From positions 4,314-68,313 of the forward strand of contig JANLHN010000003.1 of NCBI GenBank assembly GCA_024654505.1: a stretch of DNA of 64,000 bases. Direction: 5' to 3'. Source of the DNA: Nanobdellota archaeon. Its GTDB lineage: Archaea > Nanobdellota > Nanobdellia > Pacearchaeales > GW2011-AR1. Under the pieces are notes generated by a model. It had not been told where the DNA came from. It made no database searches and worked only from the letters and a program-made list of their open reading frames with translations. Numbering within the stretch: position 1 is the first letter of the stretch; each line of letters begins with the position of its first letter. The translations under genes were made by a program, and so were the position numbers. Shown one piece after another: positions 3,829-38,478 of the stretch.

Positions 3829-4707
3829 TTATTTAGTCAATATAACTACTAAATCTTCCCTATCTTCTTTACCTGGGACAATACATGGAAATTTTCTTTC
3901 TTCATAAGCCATTTCTAAAGTTTCAAAACTTGTTCTTCTTTTTGCAGGGTCATCTACAGGACCCTTATATCTTGGGGTTTTTTCTCCCATCGGGCTTGCA
4001 TCATAAACATAGGCGCCACAAATAACCCCTCCCTGGCTTAAATGATCTCTTATTGGAGAGACTATTTTCCTACAGAATCTTTCTAGATGATTAGGACTAT
4101 GGGGAAACATACTTTGAGTATAATCGGCTAGATTTGAGAGCATGACTACCCCAAATTCTTCATCTAATTTAGATGCTAAGTCTTTGGCAGATGAGTTGAT
4201 TAATTTAACCTCCGATTTTACTCTTGCTCTAACTGCTTCATATTGTTCTTCTGAATGTAAATAAGGATTACTTCGAATTCTTAATTTATCAATATCAAAT
4301 CTTTTATTAAATAACTTTGATCTTCGAACTTCTTCCCCATCCATTTCATTGATTCTGTAGACTCCATCAAAAAATCTAACGCAACCAAGAGATAATTCGT
4401 TTCTTATGGAAGAGTAAACCTTAAAATCCATTGTTCCTCCATCGCCTAGTAAAAAGAATCTTTTGAACTGCTCAAAATCTAACCTTTTTAATGCTTTAAT
4501 TTTAAGTTCTGCAAAGAAAGTAGCAAGAGTATTTATGTCAAAACAAACAACATCTTCTGCTCCAAATAAAAAAGAATTTATCATATGGTCTGCAGAACCT
4601 GTGACTGTTAGAACTTTCTTTCCTTCTAAATTTAAATTAGGCATGTATCCTGCAAGATTTTCTGTAGTAAATGGATAAACTTTTGACCTAGTTTCAAATG
4701 TAGGCAT
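3829..4707 (-). CDS. putative SAM-dependent methyltransferase-like protein (DUF3419/BtaA-like)
   Basis: Its N-terminal region, with GSADHM after a glycine-rich stretch, resembles class I methyltransferase-like DUF3419. It is the last gene of the radical-SAM operon. Confidence 0.35.
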   Translation of the reverse strand: MPTFETRSKVYPFTTENLAGYMPNLNLEGKKVLTVTGSADHMINSFLFGAEDVVCFDINTLATFFAELKIKALKRLDFEQFKRFFLLGDGGTMDFKVYSSIRNELSLGCVRFFDGVYRINEMDGEEVRRSKLFNKRFDIDKLRIRSNPYLHSEEQYEAVRARVKSEVKLINSSAKDLASKLDEEFGVVMLSNLADYTQSMFPHSPNHLERFCRKIVSPIRDHLSQGGVICGAYVYDASPMGEKTPRYKGPVDDPAKRRTSFETLEMAYEERKFPCIVPGKEDREDLVVILTK

Positions 4708-17589: not shown

Positions 17590-19158
17590 AGTATTTAGGT
17601 TTTGTGGAAACGGCCTTTACGGCCGTTTTTAACCCGGGGCTCCCGGGTTTGGTTCCAAGAGGGTTGTTGTGTTCTTTGTGTGCTGTATAGTGTACTATAA
17701 GATAAATAAAAAAATTCATCCAACATCAGCCCGCCCCCTCCTGGTAAAGAAACCCAGGGTAGGAGAGGGGGGGCGGGCTACGACGGACGAGGAGGGGTGA
17801 GCAGGGAACTTTCTCCTACTCCTCAGGACAACGAGACCCTCTAGGAGAGGGGGACCGACCTACCGTGCCATTCCATCCCGAGGGAGGGAAGGGAGGCGCC
17901 GTGGGAAGCGCAGGGCAGGGATGAAACGACCTTGGGGTTTGCCAAACCACCAAGACAGGAGGGTAGTCGGTCGTCGTGCTATTCTCACGACTTTTCCTGG
18001 TTTGAGCAGGGAGAGAGACCCACCAAGGGAGGAGAGGGCCTTGGCAAGTCAAGATGGGTTAGTCGCCCCCAGCAGCTTAGTCGCGCTGGATGCACGAAAT
18101 TGACGGGATGCTTCACCCGACAGGTGCTGGGGGCGACTGGGTACTGTCTCGATGAAACGGAACTTCCGCTCCACCGCACTTTCCCAAGATTTCTGGTGTC
18201 CCGCCGGTGTCACTTCCTTCCGTTTGGAGGGCCCTTTTGTCCCTTTGGATATCCTTCATCCTGAGTTTTTTTTACCCTTCCTTTCACAGTATGGGTTTTT
18301 TCTCAGAAGTAGGTTTTCCTCGGGGAGATTCTACGGATTTGTCCGCTTCCTCCCTCGCATCCGTGAGCAACACCGACGGGACTAGCCCTATCAAAGGGGG
18401 GAACCCACTACATGGCAAGGGTGTACCTCTAACCAGTTTGGAGAACCCCATTTAGCCACTTATCCCTTGCAGGGTGGTTAGGGTTCGCCTTACTAGCACG
18501 TGAGGCCAGTGCCTAGTTTTCCGGGATCGCCGCCAGTGTGATAGGACCATGGGTTTCAAGAAGGAACTACCGCCCCCTCAGTTCCCTTTTGGGCAACTTA
18601 CCCTTGGGGTACTGGGGCTTTTAGGGGGCGGTTTTGATGCCGAGTAGATAGGGTTCTCCGCCGCCAATACTTTCGTGTTAGACGGCGGACCCATCAGGTA
18701 AAGGAAAAGGTCTCGGTGTGCCGGCCCGCTTACCTACAACATCTAGGGGAGGAGACCTCTTGCTACGCGCGGTCGCTCAGAGTGCCGACCTGGGCGGAGG
18801 GTATGCCCACAAACACTACCTTCCAGACTCTCGTGGTGACCGAGGGGCGGAAGTGTGATTCTCATTGCGGGCTTCATTCGCTCCACAGGACAGAAGACAG
18901 GGGCGGACCGGCACGATTTTCAGGCCAGGTGGGTGAAGCTAAGACATTGCCGAAGACCTTGACAGGAAATGCACAAGACGACCCCACCTGGCCCTAGATT
19001 TCAGTGAGAAATACCTGAAACACCTCTCAGCGACGGACACAGCAACAACTAGAAATAGAATTCTTATTCGATTGCTCGAATCTTCTTCCTGGTTTCTGGT
19101 GTTGCTAGGAATCGTCGTTGGTGGTTCTAAGATGACGGGGTCATCGAAGGAAGGTGTG
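17590..19158. other. GC-rich non-coding block (about 1.5 kb) with no long ORF on either strand; structured RNA or decayed foreign DNA
   Basis: Only 60-110-codon ORFs on both strands. The 16S/23S universal motifs searched for were not found. A GC hairpin, CCCGCCCCCTCCT..AGGAGAGGGGGGGCGGG, lies at the left edge. The edge motifs match those of the 27-34 kb island. Confidence 0.4.
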
Positions 19159-29052: not shown

Positions 29053-30333
29053 CTAGGTGAGGGGGAACTCGAGCAGGTCCTTGGTCCAGTCGCCGTTCTC
29101 CATGATGACGACCTCGCGGCCGTCCTGGAGCGTGGCGGTGATGATGGTGTCCATGTCCGAGACCATGACGTCGTGGTGGGTGTTGGACATGTTGCAGCCG
29201 ACTTCCTTCTTCTCCTTGTTGCCCATCTTGTCACCACCCCGGAGAGCGGTGGCGTAGGCCATGCCGGTGGCGACGTGGCACGACGCGTTCTCGTCGTAGA
29301 GCGTGTGCTGGTAGACGCGACCGGTCTGGAAGATGGGGGAGCGCTTGACGGCCACGAGAGCCACCTCGCCGAGGAAGCGAGCTCCCTCGTCGGTGTCCAC
29401 CATCTTCTCGTACGAGTCGAGGTTGTTGCCCTCGATCTTGACGAGCTTGCCCTCCTTGAAGTACAGGACGAGGTTCTCGACCTTGTTGCCGTGGACGATG
29501 CTGGGGCGCGTGCAGCGCAGGACGCCGTTCGCGGTCCGCAGGTCAGGGGTGGTGAAGGTCTCGAACGTGGGGATGTTCAGGGTGACCATCTTGCCCTTGG
29601 CCGTGTCCTTCTTCGCCGAGATCCACTCGTGCTTGGGATGGAAGCCGACGGTGAAGTCGGTTCCCTCGCCGGCGTAGTGGAGGTTCGTGATCCGCATCGC
29701 GTTGAGGCGGGCCGTGACATCCATGAGGGTGTCGACATGTGCGTCCCAGAGCTTGAGGCAGTTGGGCGAGTCGGCGAATGTGAATGAGAAGACGTCGTCC
29801 CAGAGGGCGGCGACAGCCTCGTCCGTCGGGAGGTCCGGGAAGACCTTGGCGGCCCATCCCGGAGAGGGCGGGCCGGCGAGACACCATGCCACCATGCGGC
29901 GGTTGATGCCTTCTTCGCGCCAGCGGTTCAGGAGCGTCATCGTCGTCGTCGTGTAGGCCTGCATCTCCTCTTCGAGGCCCTTGAAGACGTCGGGGTGGTT
30001 CTGGCTTCGGAAGCCCAGGAAGCACCCTTGGGTCTCGATGACGCGTTCCATCTGGATCCGCCGCCACGTGTGTACGAGGTTGCGGTCCTGCTCGGGGGCG
30101 TGGCGCAGCTGGATTGCGGTCAGCATCTCGGAGCCGAACCGGTGGTCCACGTTGCGTGCCCCCAACTTGTAGGCCACCTCGGAGGCCATCTCGGCGAGTC
30201 TGACGTCGGACTCTTCGAAGGCCACGACGACGAACTCTCCTTCTTGGACGTTGAGGCCACGCCTCACGATCAGCTCCACGTAGTTGCGGAGTTTCTCATC
30301 GAAGCTCAGGACCTGGGTCTCTTGGACACTCAT
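29053..30333 (-). CDS. M29 family aminopeptidase (AmpS/aminopeptidase T-like)
   Basis: MSVQETQVLSFDEKLRNYVELIVRRGLNVQEGEFV is a typical M29 N-terminus. The internal ATG with a GGAGGAAGG RBS is chosen over the 24-codon upstream extension. Confidence 0.7.
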   Translation of the reverse strand: MSVQETQVLSFDEKLRNYVELIVRRGLNVQEGEFVVVAFEESDVRLAEMASEVAYKLGARNVDHRFGSEMLTAIQLRHAPEQDRNLVHTWRRIQMERVIETQGCFLGFRSQNHPDVFKGLEEEMQAYTTTTMTLLNRWREEGINRRMVAWCLAGPPSPGWAAKVFPDLPTDEAVAALWDDVFSFTFADSPNCLKLWDAHVDTLMDVTARLNAMRITNLHYAGEGTDFTVGFHPKHEWISAKKDTAKGKMVTLNIPTFETFTTPDLRTANGVLRCTRPSIVHGNKVENLVLYFKEGKLVKIEGNNLDSYEKMVDTDEGARFLGEVALVAVKRSPIFQTGRVYQHTLYDENASCHVATGMAYATALRGGDKMGNKEKKEVGCNMSNTHHDVMVSDMDTIITATLQDGREVVIMENGDWTKDLLEFPLT

Positions 30334-30430
30334 GTGTCTAATTTCCTTCCTCCGTCTGCATACCTCACGCGAGGTTCCGGGCTGCGGACCGGCTATCCTA
30401 AACACCTGTTCAAGATAGGTTGCATTAAGG

Positions 30431-30502
30431 GCTCTTCGTCCCTCCGGCCGAAGAGCTTGTTGTAGAATTGTGGCTGAGCCCTATTTGTATAGCACCGGGC
30501 CC
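30431..30502. repeat. 72-nt intergenic module (hairpin GCTCTTCG..CGAAGAGC plus TATACAAATAGGG), copy A
   Basis: Copy B at 33617-33686 is about 90% identical. Confidence 0.6.
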
Positions 30503-30530
30503 GGGGGTGCTTGTCGGCGTTCGGTTCCGG

Positions 30531-33470
30531 CTAGTCGCGCCGGCCGGTGTTGGGACGCGCGGCCATGATGGCCTCCACGAGTCCTTCCCAGCCCGGCACG
30601 TTGCCGAACACCTTCTGGATGGTCTGGGCCGTCTGGTCCTTGCCGAACATGGCGATCGGCGCACACATCTGTGCGATTTCGGCGAGGACCTTCTTGTCGC
30701 CCAGGTCCTTGAGGGCCGGAGCGATCTTCTCGGACATGACGGAGACGAGAGCGTTGGTGATGTCGCCGTCGTTCTTGGCCTCCTGGAGACGGCGCTCGAG
30801 CTCGATGCCACCCACGCGGAGGTTCTCCTCCGTCTGGGCCTTCTTGCGCTCGAGTTCCGCTGCCGCGATCTTGCTGTGGCTCTCCTGCTCGGCCAGCTTG
30901 GCTTCCAGGCGCTCCTTCTCGTGAAGGATCTCCGCCTGGAGCTGCTTCTCCTTGAGAGCCACGTCGGCCTGGAGCTGCTTCTCCTTGAGAGCCACGTCGG
31001 CTTCCGCCATCGCAGCCTTGAGAGCCACGTCGGCTTCCAGCTTCGTGGTGGCCAGCTTGGCCTCCCTCTCCGCCGCCACCTTCTTCATCGCGAAGTTGGC
31101 GTCGTCTTCGAAGGTCCTCTGGTCCAACTTGTCTTCCTGGTCCTTCTTCGCCATCGCGGTCTTGGCACCGATCTCGGCGAGTGCGAGCGACGTCCTGCGC
31201 TCGATCTCCTCCTCCTTCAGTTCCGCGATCGCCCTTGCGGTCTTGGCCCTTTCGTCTTCCTTGCTGCGCTCGATCTCCTCCAGCTTCGTGGTGAGCTCGA
31301 GTTCTCTGCGAGCGGCCTTCAGCTTGAGAGTGCCGGTGACGGCCTCCAGCTCCGCCGCACGCAGTTCTTCTCCTACCGTTCCGTCGACGATGCGGATCGC
31401 TTCGATCTGCACCTCCTTGATGTGCATCCCGTTCTCCGGGAAGGTGCGGCCGGGACGCTTGCCGTCTGCGCCCTGCTTCCCGATGATGGCGTCCCTGACG
31501 ATGTTGATGCCCACATCGTGCATCTCCTCGACCGAGTGGGTCGAAGCGATGTTCCGAAGGAGGCTCCGCATCGTGGCGACGAGCAGCTGGATGTAGTTCT
31601 CGACTGAGAACCAGAGATCCTTGTGCTCCTTCAGGAAGTCCACCGTGTAGGCGATGCGGACCTTGAACTGGACGAAGTCCCTCGTCTCGACCGTGACCTC
31701 GTCTGAGACGGGGTTGTTGGCGATGCGGAGGTACACGTCCTCCTTGACCTTGTCGTCGGTCTTGGGGGTTCCGGTGAGCAGCTTGAAGATGGTGACGCCT
31801 TCGTCGTACTCAAGGAGTACGGTTTCCGGACCCACCACGACCTTCTGCTCGCCCGTCTTGGAGGTCACCTGGACAGCGTATCCCTCGTAGACCGAGACGC
31901 CCACGGCGCCCTGGAACCTCGTGTCGAGCTTGAGACTCCGGGGAGGAGTGAATGCACCGCGACGGCTGATCTCATCACCGGCGAACTTCTCCTCGGCGTG
32001 GCTGCCGATGGGGGCAGCGTAGGCCTCTTCGCAGAACTCCTCCGAGCCCCTCCGACGACCAGCGGTGAACGAGGCCGCCCGCAGCATCGCGGACTGGCTG
32101 CCCATTGCCTTGGAGATCTCCCGGAGTTGCCGGTTGTGCACCTGCGCTTCCATGTTGCCGGGGAAGAGCAGGTTGACGAGGCGGTCGGTCAGACCCCTCA
32201 CGATGTGGACCTGCCTGCGGGGGTCCGCCAGGAAGAGCTTCGGACCGCGGATGAGAGTTATGGTCCCCTCAACCTTGTCCAGGACGTATCGACCCTCACC
32301 CTTCGGGATGATGACGGCGAAGTGCTTCTCCTGCTTCTCGCCGCTCTCGTTCTCGTAGGTGATGACCGCGTGCTCGGGTCGGGGGAAGTAGATCTTCGTG
32401 TCCCTCCCCGTGATGAAGAGCTCTTCACCCTTCGTGTATGTCCTTCCGTTCTCCGTGTACTCCTCGATGACCTTGACGTGGATGCCCATGTCATCGTTGA
32501 GCTCGATCGCGCGGAAGACGCGGCTGCCCTCGTCGCTGGTGACGAAGGTCTCGGTGCTCTTGGGGAACACCACCCTGGGACCGCGGAGGAAGCGCTTCTC
32601 GCCGTTCTCGCCGAGGAGCACGCAGAACTCCATGGTTTCCAGAGTCACGGCCGAACGGACGTACTTCTCCTTCCCGTCCTCGGGGATGACGCGACCGCCG
32701 GTCGGCGGGATGAAATAGGAGTACACTGTGCCCTTGATGACGACCCGCTGGCCGCGTGTGTAGGCGGCCTGCTCGAGTTCGTCTTCGGGTTCTCCGGCGG
32801 AAGGCTCTTCCGAAGAGGTGTTACCACCTTCGTCGTCGCCATCGTCGCCATCGAGCGTGGGCTCGGTGTCTTTGATGCTCTGCTCGCCGCCGCCGGTCTG
32901 CCCTCCACTTCCGGTCTGCTCGCCGCCGCCGGTCTGCCCGTGCCTGGTGCTGCTCTGCTCGGATGTGGGGACGACCCGGTCGATGACCGCGGTCTTCATG
33001 CCCTCCTCGAACTGCTCCGGGTTCGTGATCTCGAGAACCAGGAACTCGTTCGTCTTGAGGACGTGTCCCGGGACGACCTGGACCTTCTGGCCAGGCCACA
33101 GCGGGATGGAGATGGGGCCGGGGATGTTGACGGTCTTGCCCACCTCCAGTCGTTCCCCCGAGTTCTTCGTACCGGTCTCCGGGAGCTTCCGGTTGCTGAT
33201 AGGGGTAGGGTTTGCCAGCACCAGGTAGGACTTCTCGTCAGCCGTGGCGAATCGCTGCTTCGCCTTGTCCGCCGGCGCCTCCACGAACCTGTCGTCTCCG
33301 TCCAGGACGACGACCTTGTCGTCGCTGGTGAGGTTGACCAGGCAGGGACCGACCCAGACCCGGACATCTCCCTTTTTGGTGTCCTGCACCCAGATGAACT
33401 CGTTGGGTGCCAGGGGAATCTCCAACTCTCTTGGAGTTGTTCCCCTCCTCAGGTCCTGCTCTCCGTTCAT
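30531..33470 (-). CDS. Major Vault Protein homologue (MVP repeats, shoulder domain and a coiled-coil cap helix)
   Basis: Shoulder-domain matches to metazoan MVP: [24 protein letters not shown] against [45 protein letters not shown] against [22 protein letters not shown], and WFSVENY..RNIAS..EEMHD..IVRDAI. A long E/K/A-rich helix sits at the C-terminus. Confidence 0.8.
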   Translation of the reverse strand: [979 protein letters not shown]

Positions 33471-33475
33471 GTCTA

Positions 33476-33615
33476 ACTTCTTTCCGCTCTTGCGAGCATG
33501 AGCCTACTCTCTTCCCACGAGATTACACAATGAGTGTTTTCTCGCTTGACTTCTTGCACCATGCAAGTTCCTGGGCTTAGAACCAGGCGCACCTTGGAAG
33601 GTGTGGTGGGTTAGA
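33476..33615. repeat. 140-nt 5' leader/promoter module, copy 1 (upstream of the MVP gene)
   Basis: Near-identical (2-3 mismatches) to 34343-34483. It contains the inverted repeat TTGCA-CCA-TGCAA. Confidence 0.7.
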
Positions 33616-33616
33616 G

Positions 33617-33686
33617 CGCTCTTCGTCCCTCCGGCCGAAGAGCTTGGTTGTAGAAATGATGGGCCCTATTTGTATAGCACCGGGCC
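33617..33686. repeat. 72-nt intergenic module, copy B
   Basis: See 30431-30502. Confidence 0.6.
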
Positions 33687-33710
33687 CATTGGTGCACGCC
33701 GTCGCCGAAG

Positions 33711-34337
33711 CTACGGGTTCTTGACTGGGGCGGCGATACCTGCGGGTGTCTTCCCGGGAGGGGTGGCCGCGGGTGCCTGACCGACTCCGGCAGGGGTCCG
33801 CTGGATGGGCTGGGCTCCCTTTGGGTCCTCTCCGCGGGGGTCCACCTTCTCCATCTTGGCGAACTCGAAGTCCGTCGTCCAGATGGTCATGTTGTCGTCT
33901 CCTCGCCGGAGGAACTTGGCGTCCTTCGTCGTGAACTCCAGCCACAGCGGACAGCCGTTCCGGAACAGGTTGCACAGGTTCTCTGCGGTGGCCTTGTCGA
34001 CTTGCTGTTCGCAGCGGATTCGCTGCTCGCTCGCGTCGTAGGCCTCGAACCAGATGTTGACTGGGAGTTCCTTGCCCTTGATGATCCGGATGGCTCCCAC
34101 GTTCCATCCGTCGAGGGTCCACTCTCCCGAGGTGGGGAGGGAGGAAGTGTAGACGACCGGGGCCGGCCTGGGGGCGGGCACCGGAGCCGGAACAACAGGG
34201 GTCGGGGCCGGAACGACTGTCAGGGTCGTGGTCGGCCGGTCGAGAGCGTGGCGGTCGCAGTTCTGGTGGCGATCGGTCATGCACCCGGTGAGGGTCAGGC
34301 TGGCGATGAGGGCCAGTGCGAACAGGATGCGCTTCAC
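33711..34337 (-). CDS. lipoprotein (signal peptide with lipobox LTLTGC)
   Basis: MKRILFALALIASLTLTGC, a Pro/Ala-rich linker and a GTG start. Confidence 0.55.
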   Translation of the reverse strand: MKRILFALALIASLTLTGCMTDRHQNCDRHALDRPTTTLTVVPAPTPVVPAPVPAPRPAPVVYTSSLPTSGEWTLDGWNVGAIRIIKGKELPVNIWFEAYDASEQRIRCEQQVDKATAENLCNLFRNGCPLWLEFTTKDAKFLRRGDDNMTIWTTDFEFAKMEKVDPRGEDPKGAQPIQRTPAGVGQAPAATPPGKTPAGIAAPVKNP

Positions 34338-34342
34338 GGGAT

Positions 34343-34483
34343 TCTTCCTTCCGCTCTTGCGAGCATGAGCTTACTCTCTTCCCACGAGATTACACAACGA
34401 GTGTTTTCTCGCTTGACTTCTTGCACCATGCAAGTTCCTGGGCTTAGAACCAGGCGCACCTTGGAAGGTGTGGTGGGTTAGAG
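34343..34483. repeat. 140-nt 5' leader/promoter module, copy 2 (upstream of the lipoprotein gene); ends exactly at the island/host boundary
   Basis: See 33476-33615. Confidence 0.7.
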
Positions 34484-34884
34484 TGACTTCTTATTTCTAT
34501 CAAGAACTAGGACTCAAGTAGTAACATATAGGTATTTCACTGATTTACCGACGTGAAATTGGTGATTTCTCGACGGAAAACCCTGTCTTTAGTAAAGCTC
34601 TAGCTACATAGAAGAATGATACCCTTTGTTGAAATCGGTTATTTCTAACTGATTTCGAGGGTGTTCCGCTGTGTTTCTGGAGTGTCGCTAAGGTGAAATA
34701 TGTGGTACGAAGAACGACAGATGTCGTTCGAGCGGTATGCTTTCGCATTATGTTACTACTTTTGTATGAATATTTATAAAAAAACCCCTTTAAAAATCTT
34801 TCGATTATGTTGTCCTTTAATAGTGACAGAGGATTAGGAGATTCCTATAATTTTGGATGTTAATAGTTAGAAATATTGGTCTTT

Positions 34885-36627: not shown

Positions 36628-37479
36628 CTAGTTCTTCAATCCAGATAGCTCTCTTATTGTCTTTTCAATCTCTTTTATATGCTTTCTAGCTGCCACTTTG
36701 TCTGCAGGTAATGCCATTGGATTTGCAATAATATTCTGATAGGCTTCTATACTTGTTGTTAGAGTATTTATTTGCGCCAAGGCTCGAGAGCCCTTGGCTT
36801 TAGAGATGCCTAGGTCTGCTCTTTCTTTGTAGATTAATCTTCTGAAGGTTGCATCAAACCAGAACATTAATAGGGAAAGTACAGCAAATATAATATATAC
36901 CCAAAGTGTAGCTTTAGCCCCTTCCACACCAAAGGTTCCTGTGGCGATAAGGTAACTTAAGAATGCAAAATAAACTAACCAAATTACTTTATTTGCTAAA
37001 CGAGACCGAATCTTCATAGTTATAAAGAACATAGCTAAGAAAGGTAATCCTATAAGTAATGTTGCAATGAATGCACTTGCCGGAGATGTTAAAGACATCC
37101 AAAGATCTTTAGGCATAAATCTAACACCTATGATTGCGACGATTATTCCGACAAAGAAGTTTGCAAGGTGTCCTGCTTTTGATTCACCAAAGATATTTAC
37201 AGAATCAAGAGTTGATACAATAACTATAGATGCTAAGAGAAACGTTAAAACCATTAAGAAGGCATTATTCTGTCCTGTTTGGTCTAATCCTAAAACTGCT
37301 TTGAATATCGGACCTAAAATTGTCATAAATAACTCACTTACCAAATTCATACCTTTCTCTGCGGTACCTCCCTCTAGAGCAAACCAACCGATAAGAAAAA
37401 TCCCTGCAAAAATAATAAGAATACCAACGACAACTCCTGCAAATATGTTTTGTCCTCTTTTGTTGAAGCCCGTTTTCAT
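36628..37479 (-). CDS. multi-pass membrane protein, paralogue family member 1
   Basis: About 60% identical to the 37642-38478 product. Shared C-terminal motif EKTIRELSGL. Confidence 0.55.
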   Translation of the reverse strand: MKTGFNKRGQNIFAGVVVGILIIFAGIFLIGWFALEGGTAEKGMNLVSELFMTILGPIFKAVLGLDQTGQNNAFLMVLTFLLASIVIVSTLDSVNIFGESKAGHLANFFVGIIVAIIGVRFMPKDLWMSLTSPASAFIATLLIGLPFLAMFFITMKIRSRLANKVIWLVYFAFLSYLIATGTFGVEGAKATLWVYIIFAVLSLLMFWFDATFRRLIYKERADLGISKAKGSRALAQINTLTTSIEAYQNIIANPMALPADKVAARKHIKEIEKTIRELSGLKN

Positions 37480-37641: not shown

Positions 37642-38478
37642 TTATTTTCCTAGTCCGGATAACTCTCTTATTGTCTTTTCAGTGTTCATCATTGCTTTCC
37701 TAGCGTCTGCTTTTGTTTTTGGATCAGAATTAGGGTCTGCAATAACAGTTTGATATTCTTGTATTAAGGCTTTTAGCTTCTGTATTTGGATTAGGGCTTG
37801 GGTTCCTTTTGCTTGAGCTATTCCTGTTTCAACTCTTTCTTTGTAAAATATTCTTCTTATACTTGCGTCAAAGATTAACATTACCAGGGAAAGAAATGCG
37901 AAGATGATATATATCCACATTGTAGCCTTAGCTCCATCTACATCGAATGTCCCTGTAGCTATAAGGTAACTTAAGAATGCAAAATAAACTAACCAGATTA
38001 CCTTATTTGCTAAACGAGACTTAATCTTCATAGTTATGAAGAACATTACTAAGAAGGGTAATCCTACGAGTATTGTTGCAATAAATGCGCTTGCAGGAGA
38101 TGATAATCCATTCCAAAGGGTTGAAGGCATAAATCTAACACCTATGACTGCGACAATCATTCCAACGAAGAAGTTTACAAGGTGTCCAGATTTGGACTCA
38201 CCAAAAATATTTATAGAATCTAAAGTTGATACTACTACTATTGCAGCCATTAGGAAGGCTAAGACCATCATAAAATCATTTGTTCCATCAAAACCTAGCA
38301 AGCCCTTAAATAATGGCCCAAGAATATCTACAAATATACTACTTACTAGATTCATGCCCCCTTCTGCAGAGCCCTTGTCAATCCAACCAAAGATAAGAAT
38401 CCCGAAAAAAATAACAAGAAGAACGACGACAACTCCTGCAAATATATTCTGTCCTCTTTTGTTGAAGCCCTTTTTCAT
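37642..38478 (-). CDS. multi-pass membrane protein, paralogue family member 2
   Basis: Tandem paralogue. Confidence 0.55.
   Translation of the reverse strand: MKKGFNKRGQNIFAGVVVVLLVIFFGILIFGWIDKGSAEGGMNLVSSIFVDILGPLFKGLLGFDGTNDFMMVLAFLMAAIVVVSTLDSINIFGESKSGHLVNFFVGMIVAVIGVRFMPSTLWNGLSSPASAFIATILVGLPFLVMFFITMKIKSRLANKVIWLVYFAFLSYLIATGTFDVDGAKATMWIYIIFAFLSLVMLIFDASIRRIFYKERVETGIAQAKGTQALIQIQKLKALIQEYQTVIADPNSDPKTKADARKAMMNTEKTIRELSGLGK

Follow-up and report, generated by a model that had tools for sequence, protein, structure and literature searches.

A major vault protein gene of apparently bacterial type on a foreign GC-rich island in a Nanoarchaeota (DPANN) chromosome

Does an archaeal chromosome encode a genuine major vault protein (MVP) homolog and, if so, how did the gene come to be there? 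This question is raised by an open reading frame (ORF) of 979 amino acids (aa) in a stretch of 64,000 nucleotides (nt) from a Nanobdellota archaeon (positions 4,314 to 68,313 of contig JANLHN010000003.1, assembly GCA_024654505.1; hereafter, the window), a metagenome-assembled genome (MAG) that carries the label Nanoarchaeota at NCBI. The initial annotation, made from the sequence alone, described the product as a full-length MVP homolog inside an archaeal chromosome, next to a protease and a zinc-ribbon protein, and suggested a vault-like compartment or a viral or cargo-delivery particle. The presence of a full-length MVP homolog in this chromosome is supported by the analysis presented here, and we propose that, in all likelihood, a bacterial-type MVP gene was imported into the DPANN host on a foreign, high-GC cassette of ~7 kb; the donor is unsampled, was probably bacterial and possibly relied on a phage as the vector.

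30531..33470, minus strand: MVP-family gene, 979-aa ORF (assigned by Pfam, phmmer, alignment, AlphaFold2 and Foldseek)

The 979-aa product is a bona fide MVP-family protein. Two MVP models of Pfam match it above their curated cutoffs, namely, MVP_shoulder (PF11978; 79.9 bits, with the cutoff at 25; E 1.9e-22; aa 586-696, spanning 116 of the 118 profile positions) and Vault_3 (43.8 bits against 28.8, E 2.9e-11, aa 532-576). In a phmmer comparison with all PDB sequences, major vault proteins are the sole matches; rat MVP (4hl8) is found at E 7e-17, with aa 523-847 of the query aligned to rat residues 458-800, i.e., R9, the shoulder and the cap helix. The ORF claimed to encode an MVP homolog is borne out by these matches, and the HMMER alignment to rat 4hl8 recovers the three blocks that had been aligned by eye with the metazoan MVP shoulder.

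Furthermore, the predicted structure encompasses the full repeats-shoulder-cap-helix architecture. An AlphaFold2 model built on an alignment of 120 sequences (A2) reached a mean predicted local distance difference test (pLDDT) score of 69.6 (a 20-sequence alignment gave only 59), with the repeats, the shoulder and the helix as its confident parts. In this model, confident beta-repeat units (aa 14-168) are followed by a disordered loop (169-229), more beta repeats (236-428, of low confidence at 280-370), helices (429-471) and another disordered loop (458-512), and then by a repeat that corresponds to Vault_3 (523-585), the shoulder (586-696), a near-continuous cap helix (697-922; aligned by phmmer to rat residues ~647-800) and a small C-terminal helical domain (927-971). 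The beta-rich, MVP-like repeats that had been suspected ahead of the shoulder are predicted in the model, where ~580 aa of MVP-type repeats match MVP R1-R7 in Foldseek; the long C-terminal helix is there as well, at a length of ~225 aa rather than the ~170 aa originally estimated. The top 12 Foldseek matches in the PDB are all vault MVP structures (E 6e-26 to 3e-19, ~950 aligned columns; rabbit 9z4w at 6e-26, human 9mxv and 9bw5, rat 4hl8 and 4v60), and the crystals of murine R1-R7 repeats come next (E 6.5e-11, for 3gnf, to 9e-10). The low TM-scores of the model are not surprising for a rod of 979 residues that contains flexible hinges. Two lineage-specific insertions add ~150 aa compared with the homolog median of 829 aa:

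aa ~175-219, nt 32814-32948: MVP insertion 1, G/E/D low complexity, 18-nt tandem repeat
aa 772-848, nt 30927-31157: MVP insertion 2, 77-aa coiled-coil extension with a 33-nt tandem repeat

The shoulder has the SPFH fold, so an alternative to be weighed here is that the 979-aa protein is a generic SPFH/band-7 membrane scaffold that organizes a protease in the style of HflK/C-FtsH or stomatin-NfeD, with an M29 aminopeptidase encoded nearby as its client and no soluble shell. Flotillin, HflK/C, prohibitin and stomatin are indeed the next-best structures, some relatives of the protein match PF01145 (Band_7) or are named "SPFH domain-containing protein" at NCBI, and the MVP gene is adjoined by a protease gene and preceded by a lipoprotein gene. 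Nevertheless, the SPFH cages are matched at 1e-5 or weaker, over the shoulder and the helix only, and the MVP structures score ~20 orders of magnitude better; the ~580 aa of repeats ahead of the shoulder are those of MVP; no long hydrophobic anchor helix is present in the AlphaFold2 model; and the M29 protein, which has no extension usable as a targeting signal, is not encoded beside MVP in any of 160 other loci compared. Far from matching only SPFH/band-7 domains, the protein finds by far its best matches among MVP Pfam models and MVP structures, with no match to PF01145 (Band_7) at E<=0.1, and we consider the membrane scaffold improbable.

More than 1700 relatives of the 979-aa protein, prokaryotic and viral, were detected among 5.8 billion proteins. 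An identical protein is on deposit as a "hypothetical protein" of an archaeal MAG (MCR4323430), and the other top matches (808-928 aa, ~35-44% identity) are bacterial where named, the names being Gemmatimonadaceae, Nannocystis, Riflebacteria, Schekmanbacteria, Microscillaceae, Planctomycetota and Anaerolineae. Many of these relatives bear the JGI label "major vault protein." The bacterial-type MVP family is matched at 600+ bits versus 64 bits for rat MVP, the sole eukaryotic MVP compared. In agreement with this bacterial affinity, a search of one genome per species matched 301 genomes, and the 80 best loci are all bacterial. The protein aligns end to end with 119 homologs, keeping 76 of 76 invariant columns at 37-43% identity to each, and shows a mean identity of 40.7% to the bacterial members and of 36.6% to the viral ones, with a mean of 59% among the bacterial members themselves. 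Judged by its sequence, it is a bacterial-type MVP on a long branch that lacks an identifiable sister.

The existence of MVP homologs outside eukaryotes is itself well documented: bacterial MVP-like proteins (Daly et al. 2013, PMC3762200; Sokolskyi 2019, bioRxiv 10.1101/872010) and gut-phage MVPs (bioRxiv 10.1101/2023.11.10.566534) have been published, and in Asgard archaea, ten MVP homologs have been described, half of which group with eukaryotes, with five repeats in the representative (Nat Microbiol 2026, PMC12962969). Given these reports and the more than 1700 relatives, the initial statement that MVP is only patchily reported outside eukaryotes was an understatement. No paper joining the major vault protein with DPANN, Nanoarchaeota or Woesearchaeota was found among the top-ranked literature matches; a lower-ranked one is possible.

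Ten of the 80 best MVP loci belong to Candidate Phyla Radiation (CPR) bacteria, specifically, Saccharibacteria, Magasanikiibacteriota and Paceibacterota (L002, L004, L007, L015, L043, L060, L061, L063, L065, and L069). Together with the DPANN case, these loci suggest that ultra-small episymbionts acquire or retain MVP genes repeatedly. On the viral side, the MVP homologs detected far outnumber the two reported from gut phages as the "first viral MVPs," and in three IMG/VR loci (L117, L130, and L135) the MVP gene adjoins a tRNA array.

How, then, did a protein of this type come to be encoded in an archaeon? The composition of the DNA around the gene is telling:

27607..34483, no strand assigned: GC-rich island core, 55-67% GC; gene GC3 (GC content at third codon positions) 0.80-0.91

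The rest of the window has ~35% GC, and the four island genes show GC3 of 0.80-0.91 (~0.86) versus 0.24-0.35 (~0.30) for the host genes on either side. The flanking genes are core archaeal ones, encoding family-B DNA polymerase (PolB), FEN1, TFIIE-alpha, a PAN-type AAA ATPase and several aminoacyl-tRNA synthetases. Hence, of the initial description of the MVP gene as lying inside an archaeal chromosome, the archaeal flanks stand; the gene, however, is not native, as it resides on a foreign GC-rich island that had been overlooked. We fetched 24 syntenic loci from metagenomes with PolB. In the closest of these (L164; PolB 65% and FEN1 72% identical), the homologs of g26768 and g34885 are ~250 nt apart, compared with 7.9 kb in the window, where the island lies between them; judged against this empty site, the maximum inserted stretch is ~26990-34884. 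Neither a GC-rich segment nor any island gene is present in any of the 24 syntenic loci. The GC3 contrast, the empty site in L164 and the lack of the island in all 24 loci together indicate a lineage-specific insertion. The composition of the island has not yet drifted toward that of the host, and the import is a recent one.

So extreme a jump in composition could also come from an assembly or binning artefact, with bacterial DNA mis-joined to the archaeal contig, especially given that MAGs are prone to chimerism. Against this, host genes lie on both sides of the island within a contig of 370 kb, and its right edge, where GC-rich meets host sequence, coincides with the exact 5' end of the second copy of a repeated 140-nt leader module (D1, copy 2). 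Moreover, the MVP, M29 and Cys-rich proteins are identical in two GenBank MAGs (MCR4284634-36 and MCR4323428-30), on one contig of 85,288 bp and another of 369,652 bp, with the same gene order and a distance of five protein accession numbers from PolB in both; the two PolB proteins differ at 2 of 800 residues. Two mis-joins would be needed in both assemblies, and the occurrence of the same junctions in two separate assemblies makes an artefact unlikely, indeed very much so in our estimate.

The Asgard homologs, some of which group with those of eukaryotes, suggest another possibility, that of an ancient, vertically inherited archaeal MVP, which would bear on an archaeal origin of eukaryotic vaults. 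For the gene in the window, this scenario is effectively refuted by composition and synteny: GC3 is 0.86 versus ~0.30 in the host, the closest relative has nothing inserted at this site, and none of the 24 related loci contains the gene. The affinity of the protein, bacterial-type with 64 bits to rat MVP, points the same way. Vertical descent is the least probable of all the explanations that we considered.

The island thus understood as an insertion, the question becomes what it brought along. All its genes are on the minus strand, in the order 208-aa protein, MVP, M29, 31-aa transmembrane ORF, 363-aa Cys-rich protein, and 45-aa transmembrane ORF; the genes other than MVP are:

33711..34337, minus strand: 208-aa ORF with a Pro-rich linker; no family match
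29053..30333, minus strand: M29 (PepS/AmpS-type) aminopeptidase, 426 aa; Pfam E 4e-115
28869-28964, minus strand: mini transmembrane ORF, 31 aa (MNYIGDIGILLFF...), after hairpin module B at 28989-29043
27690..28781, minus strand: Cys-rich ORFan, 363 aa; helical N-terminus, then at least 4 tandem 8-Cys (RING/PHD-like) modules, 44 Cys
27469-27606, minus strand: mini transmembrane ORF, 45 aa (MYHVGIIIVCFLV...), after hairpin module B at 27629-27683

The 208-aa ORF contains what we take, by inspection, to be a bacterial-type lipoprotein signal (MKRILFALALIASLTLTGC). The M29 aminopeptidase has no terminal extension compared with its homologs; the genomic contexts of its best relatives are unrelated to the island, and the likeness of the island to plasmids is limited to a 130-nt conserved peptidase stretch. 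The modules of the Cys-rich ORFan have the pattern C-x2-C...C-x2-C with a DNA period of 150 nt and give only a weak RING-finger match; this protein has a eukaryote-like, multi-zinc-finger look. The unit consisting of a hairpin and a mini transmembrane ORF appears to have been duplicated within the island. Searches with PADLOC, PHROGs and NCBIfam returned nothing meaningful for any island protein.

Are any of these genes functional partners of MVP? All island proteins were compared by tblastn with 80 bacterial and 80 viral (L081-L160, IMG/VR) MVP loci, within 8 kb of the MVP gene. The M29, Cys-rich and 208-aa proteins, like the two mini transmembrane ORFs, have no counterpart near MVP in any of the 160 loci, and all-against-all clustering revealed no neighbor family common to bacterial MVP loci. 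The protease and the Cys-rich gene noted next to MVP are there, but they are not conserved partners, and the co-occurrence of neighbors with MVP elsewhere, a check that the initial annotation had proposed, is not seen. Because the neighborhood is particular to this island, the reading of the locus as a compartment with its cargo lacks comparative support, and we rejected the idea that the protease or the zinc protein represents vault cargo. A Pfam scan of 38 window ORFs, which include all long ORFs within ~8 kb of the island, revealed no TEP1/TROVE, PARP4 or vault-RNA-related families, and Rfam scans of the window detected no vault RNA.

The island is also distinguished by repeated modules of three kinds that surround its genes, and by a candidate ribozyme:

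33477..33616, minus strand: leader module D1 copy 1, 140 nt, directly upstream of MVP
34344..34483, minus strand: leader module D1 copy 2, 140 nt, directly upstream of the 208-aa ORF
33615..33704, minus strand: module A double hairpin, GGGCCC...GGGCCC around TATACAAATA, then GCUCUUCG...CGAAGAGC; downstream of the 208-aa ORF
27629..27683, minus strand: GC hairpin module B, downstream of the Cys-rich gene; second copy at 28989-29043, downstream of M29
30348..30431, minus strand: candidate twister-P1 (RF03160), full-length and sub-threshold, 15 nt upstream of the M29 start codon

A second copy of module A (30428-30519) follows the MVP stop codon. The motif GCGGAA(G/A)GAAG precedes three start codons, and the related ACGGAGGAAGGAA precedes that of M29. 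The two D1 copies are 98% identical (3 differences), have fold stability z-scores of -3.9 (copy 1, multi-branch) and -3.1, and share a twister-like layout, P1-UAA-P2-[P3][P4][P5], with an extra stem. The 5' half of D1 aligns column by column (MAFFT) with the element in the M29 leader and, if D1 is a ribozyme, copy 1 is predicted to be cleaved at the UAA site between U33613 and A33612.

The RF03160 element in the M29 leader is the lone island match in a permissive Rfam scan (E 6e-4 over 8 kb, 2e-5 over 261 nt). Helices P1-P4 all pair in the Infernal alignment, with compensatory changes in P2 and P3, and an unconstrained minimum free energy fold gives the same helices. The UAA cleavage motif is kept, with the site predicted at U30427/A30426, as is the GCCGGUCC..AGCCCGG core, and a penalized insertion of 13 nt folds into a hairpin where the optional P5 would be located. 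Two departures from the model, L4 CCC to CCG and 3' GGG to CGG, are mutually complementary, and this CCG/CGG pairing would correspond to the T1 pseudoknot of the twister fold. In 2.9 Mb of fetched sequence, the strict P4/L4 core motif was detected five times, with three of these occurrences in island leaders, all on the coding strand. The leader of M29 is, in our view, a credible candidate for a divergent twister, and the 140-nt module is a less convincing one; the odds that the former is a self-cleaving twister-type RNA appear to be slightly less than even, and those for the 140-nt module are lower still. In all, three candidate self-cleaving leaders would lie within a single 7-kb island of an archaeal genome.

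Other types of elements were considered as well. Twisters beside MVP in viral loci were rejected because the motif matches are tRNA T-arms. Sigma-70 promoters and intrinsic terminators are no more frequent in the island than expected by chance. The idea of integron/attC cassettes was dropped: no Phage_integrase-type match was found in the flanking ORFs scanned (no formal attC model was run), and the repeats are of three kinds, one of them directly 5' of start codons.

We propose that the cassette would have delivered a lipoprotein-like gene, MVP, the M29 aminopeptidase, the Cys-rich ORFan and the two mini transmembrane ORFs together with its own expression signals, possibly including ribozyme-processed leaders. 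The four genes appear to be expressed as separate units that have leaders (GCGGAAGGAAGAAU..AUG) and downstream hairpins in common, and twister-type, self-cleaving leaders of M29, MVP and the lipoprotein gene might trim each message. By analogy with eukaryotic MVP, the monomers would pack side by side via the beta repeats and the SPFH-like shoulders, and the long C-terminal helices would bundle into a cap, made longer by the 77-aa coiled-coil insertion, with the acidic low-complexity loop decorating the barrel wall. That the 979-aa protein forms a soluble cage or half-vault shell of this kind is, in our analysis, a proposition with about equal chances either way because assembly of a prokaryotic MVP is not reported in the literature found. 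Nothing here ties the predicted cage to the neighboring peptidase. A bolder version would be a long shot: a self-contained cassette, transferable across domains, would carry a divergent twister in each leader to release and insulate the message (three ribozymes in 7 kb, and a twister class at work in an archaeon), and would provide its ultra-small DPANN host, a symbiont, with a nanocompartment resembling the vault, for which the aminopeptidase and the multi-zinc-finger ORFan, transferred along with it, would be lineage-specific contents or partners.

A variant of the horizontal gene transfer scenario, not exclusive of it, holds that the island is a remnant of cargo of a virus or another mobile element (e.g., a huge phage), with MVP as a viral accessory gene. 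Indeed, ~100 IMG/VR contigs, many of 100-500 kb, contain an MVP homolog, as do GenBank huge phages of 462-735 kb (LR756500, LR756501, and LR756503; 36-37% identity), phage MVPs have been published, and the island is rich in ORFans, with duplicated regulatory modules and ribozyme-like leaders. Conversely, no integrase, capsid, terminase or other phage hallmark was found in or beside the island, nor any tRNA or att-like flanking repeat; the identity of the 979-aa protein is higher to the bacterial than to the viral homologs (means of 40.7% and 36.6%), and the median GC of viral MVP loci is 0.39, compared with 0.62 here. Viral cargo therefore appears unlikely, albeit clearly less so than the membrane scaffold.

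Several observations weigh against the import of a bacterial-type MVP as we reconstruct it, above all, that no donor can be named. The 979-aa protein is the most divergent of 157 full-length homologs (at most 44% identity), the closest M29 relatives are only ~45% identical, and the 363-aa Cys-rich protein has no homolog among the 5.8 billion proteins. A metagenome scan with MVP peptides found no closer relatives of the island, and exact-protein look-ups for P0001 and P0243 returned no contigs. The two MAGs that share the island may come from one study and hence may not be fully independent of each other. Both the lipoprotein signal and the leaders have a bacterial appearance, the RF03160 match (32.2 bits) is below the gathering score of 67.2, and the 140-nt D1 module has no Rfam match at E<10. 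The repeat count of the modeled MVP, ~7-8, is approximate because aa 280-370 and the two loops are of low confidence. Finally, human MVP has an NAD+/ADP-ribose pocket with a basic keyhole loop formed by R504, K506, R507, H509 and R511 (PMC12280208). When these residues are placed on the 979-aa protein via the rat alignment, K506 corresponds to K570, within a G-x-P-K motif that is invariant in 120 of 120 sequences, and R511 to K576, whereas the basic residues R504, R507 and H509 correspond to T568, T571 and D573; from the sequence, the pocket appears to be conserved just in part.

The window contains additional features of note. At ~17700-19060, between the M24 peptidase and PUA genes, there is an ORF-free block of 1.35 kb with 52-59% GC in a genome of 35% GC. 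Both strands of this block (17.7-19.1 kb) fold far more stably than shuffled sequences (z-scores: plus, -4.9; minus, -7.3), and the centroid of the minus strand is well defined; no Rfam family was found in it even at permissive thresholds. Syntenic relatives lack the block, so that their M24 peptidase and PUA genes adjoin each other. The block has no relationship to the MVP island, and we consider it a candidate large structured non-coding RNA or mobile RNA element. Nearby, a His_Phos_1 histidine-phosphatase gene (19724-20353, minus strand) is located between the PUA and RsmB genes. A tblastn search with its product detected a counterpart in none of the 24 syntenic relatives, and RsmB and PUA abut in several of them (L171-L174 and L179), which suggests a further lineage-specific insertion.

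Beyond the right edge of the island, two adjacent paralogs (36628-37479 and 37642-38478, both minus strand) have near-identical N-termini, MK(T/K)GFNKRGQNIFAGVVV..., whose sequence resembles the class III (type IV pilin-like) signal peptides of archaea; neither paralog has a Pfam match. They belong to a row of six ORFs without Pfam matches (34.9-43.1 kb), among which there is one for a protein of 1043 aa that looks secreted.

The prokaryotic MVP family is already known; what is new is the finding of MVP in a new host lineage, DPANN, by cross-domain transfer. It appears that MVP genes cross the boundary between bacteria and archaea and can land in genome-reduced DPANN symbionts. Since an MVP gene in an archaeon can be a recent import, inferring from it that eukaryotic vaults originated in archaea calls for caution unless composition and synteny are checked. 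As the most divergent bacterial-type MVP sampled, with a cap helix longer by 77 aa, the 979-aa protein is a useful outlier for the requirements of cage assembly. The practical value of the locus is modest because it lacks a conserved partner that could be put to the test, and the MVP locus alone does not open any long-standing question to testing; the ribozyme-like leaders and the structured non-coding block may be the more original leads.

Compared with known systems, the M29 leader element covers the whole twister-P1 model (RF03160), from which it differs by the lack of two A residues in the UAAA segment and by ACC in place of GCC; the 140-nt module differs from RF03160 by its extra stem. 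Phage MVPs belong to the same family, are of similar length and show that the gene is mobile; the identity to them is ~33-43%, and the copy in the window is not surrounded by phage genes. The Asgard MVP (PMC12962969) is likewise a member of the family in an archaeal genome but, by the published description, has five repeats compared with the ~7-8 predicted here for a protein of bacterial type, encoded on an imported island in a DPANN host. The MVP of eukaryotic vaults (rat 4V60 and 4HL8; human 9BW5 and 9MXV; rabbit 9Z4W) shares the repeats-shoulder-cap-helix architecture and the G-x-P-K core of the keyhole loop; the structural-alignment identity is ~15-17%, the cap helix is ~70 aa longer in the archaeal copy, and the 39-fold assembly is a feature of the vault, whereas the 979-aa protein is known here from its gene and a model. 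The closest counterparts are the bacterial MVP-like proteins, which have the same domain order (repeats, shoulder, long helix, and small C-terminal helical domain) and from which the protein described here is set apart by its archaeal host, its two insertions and its location on a foreign island with repeated regulatory modules of its own.

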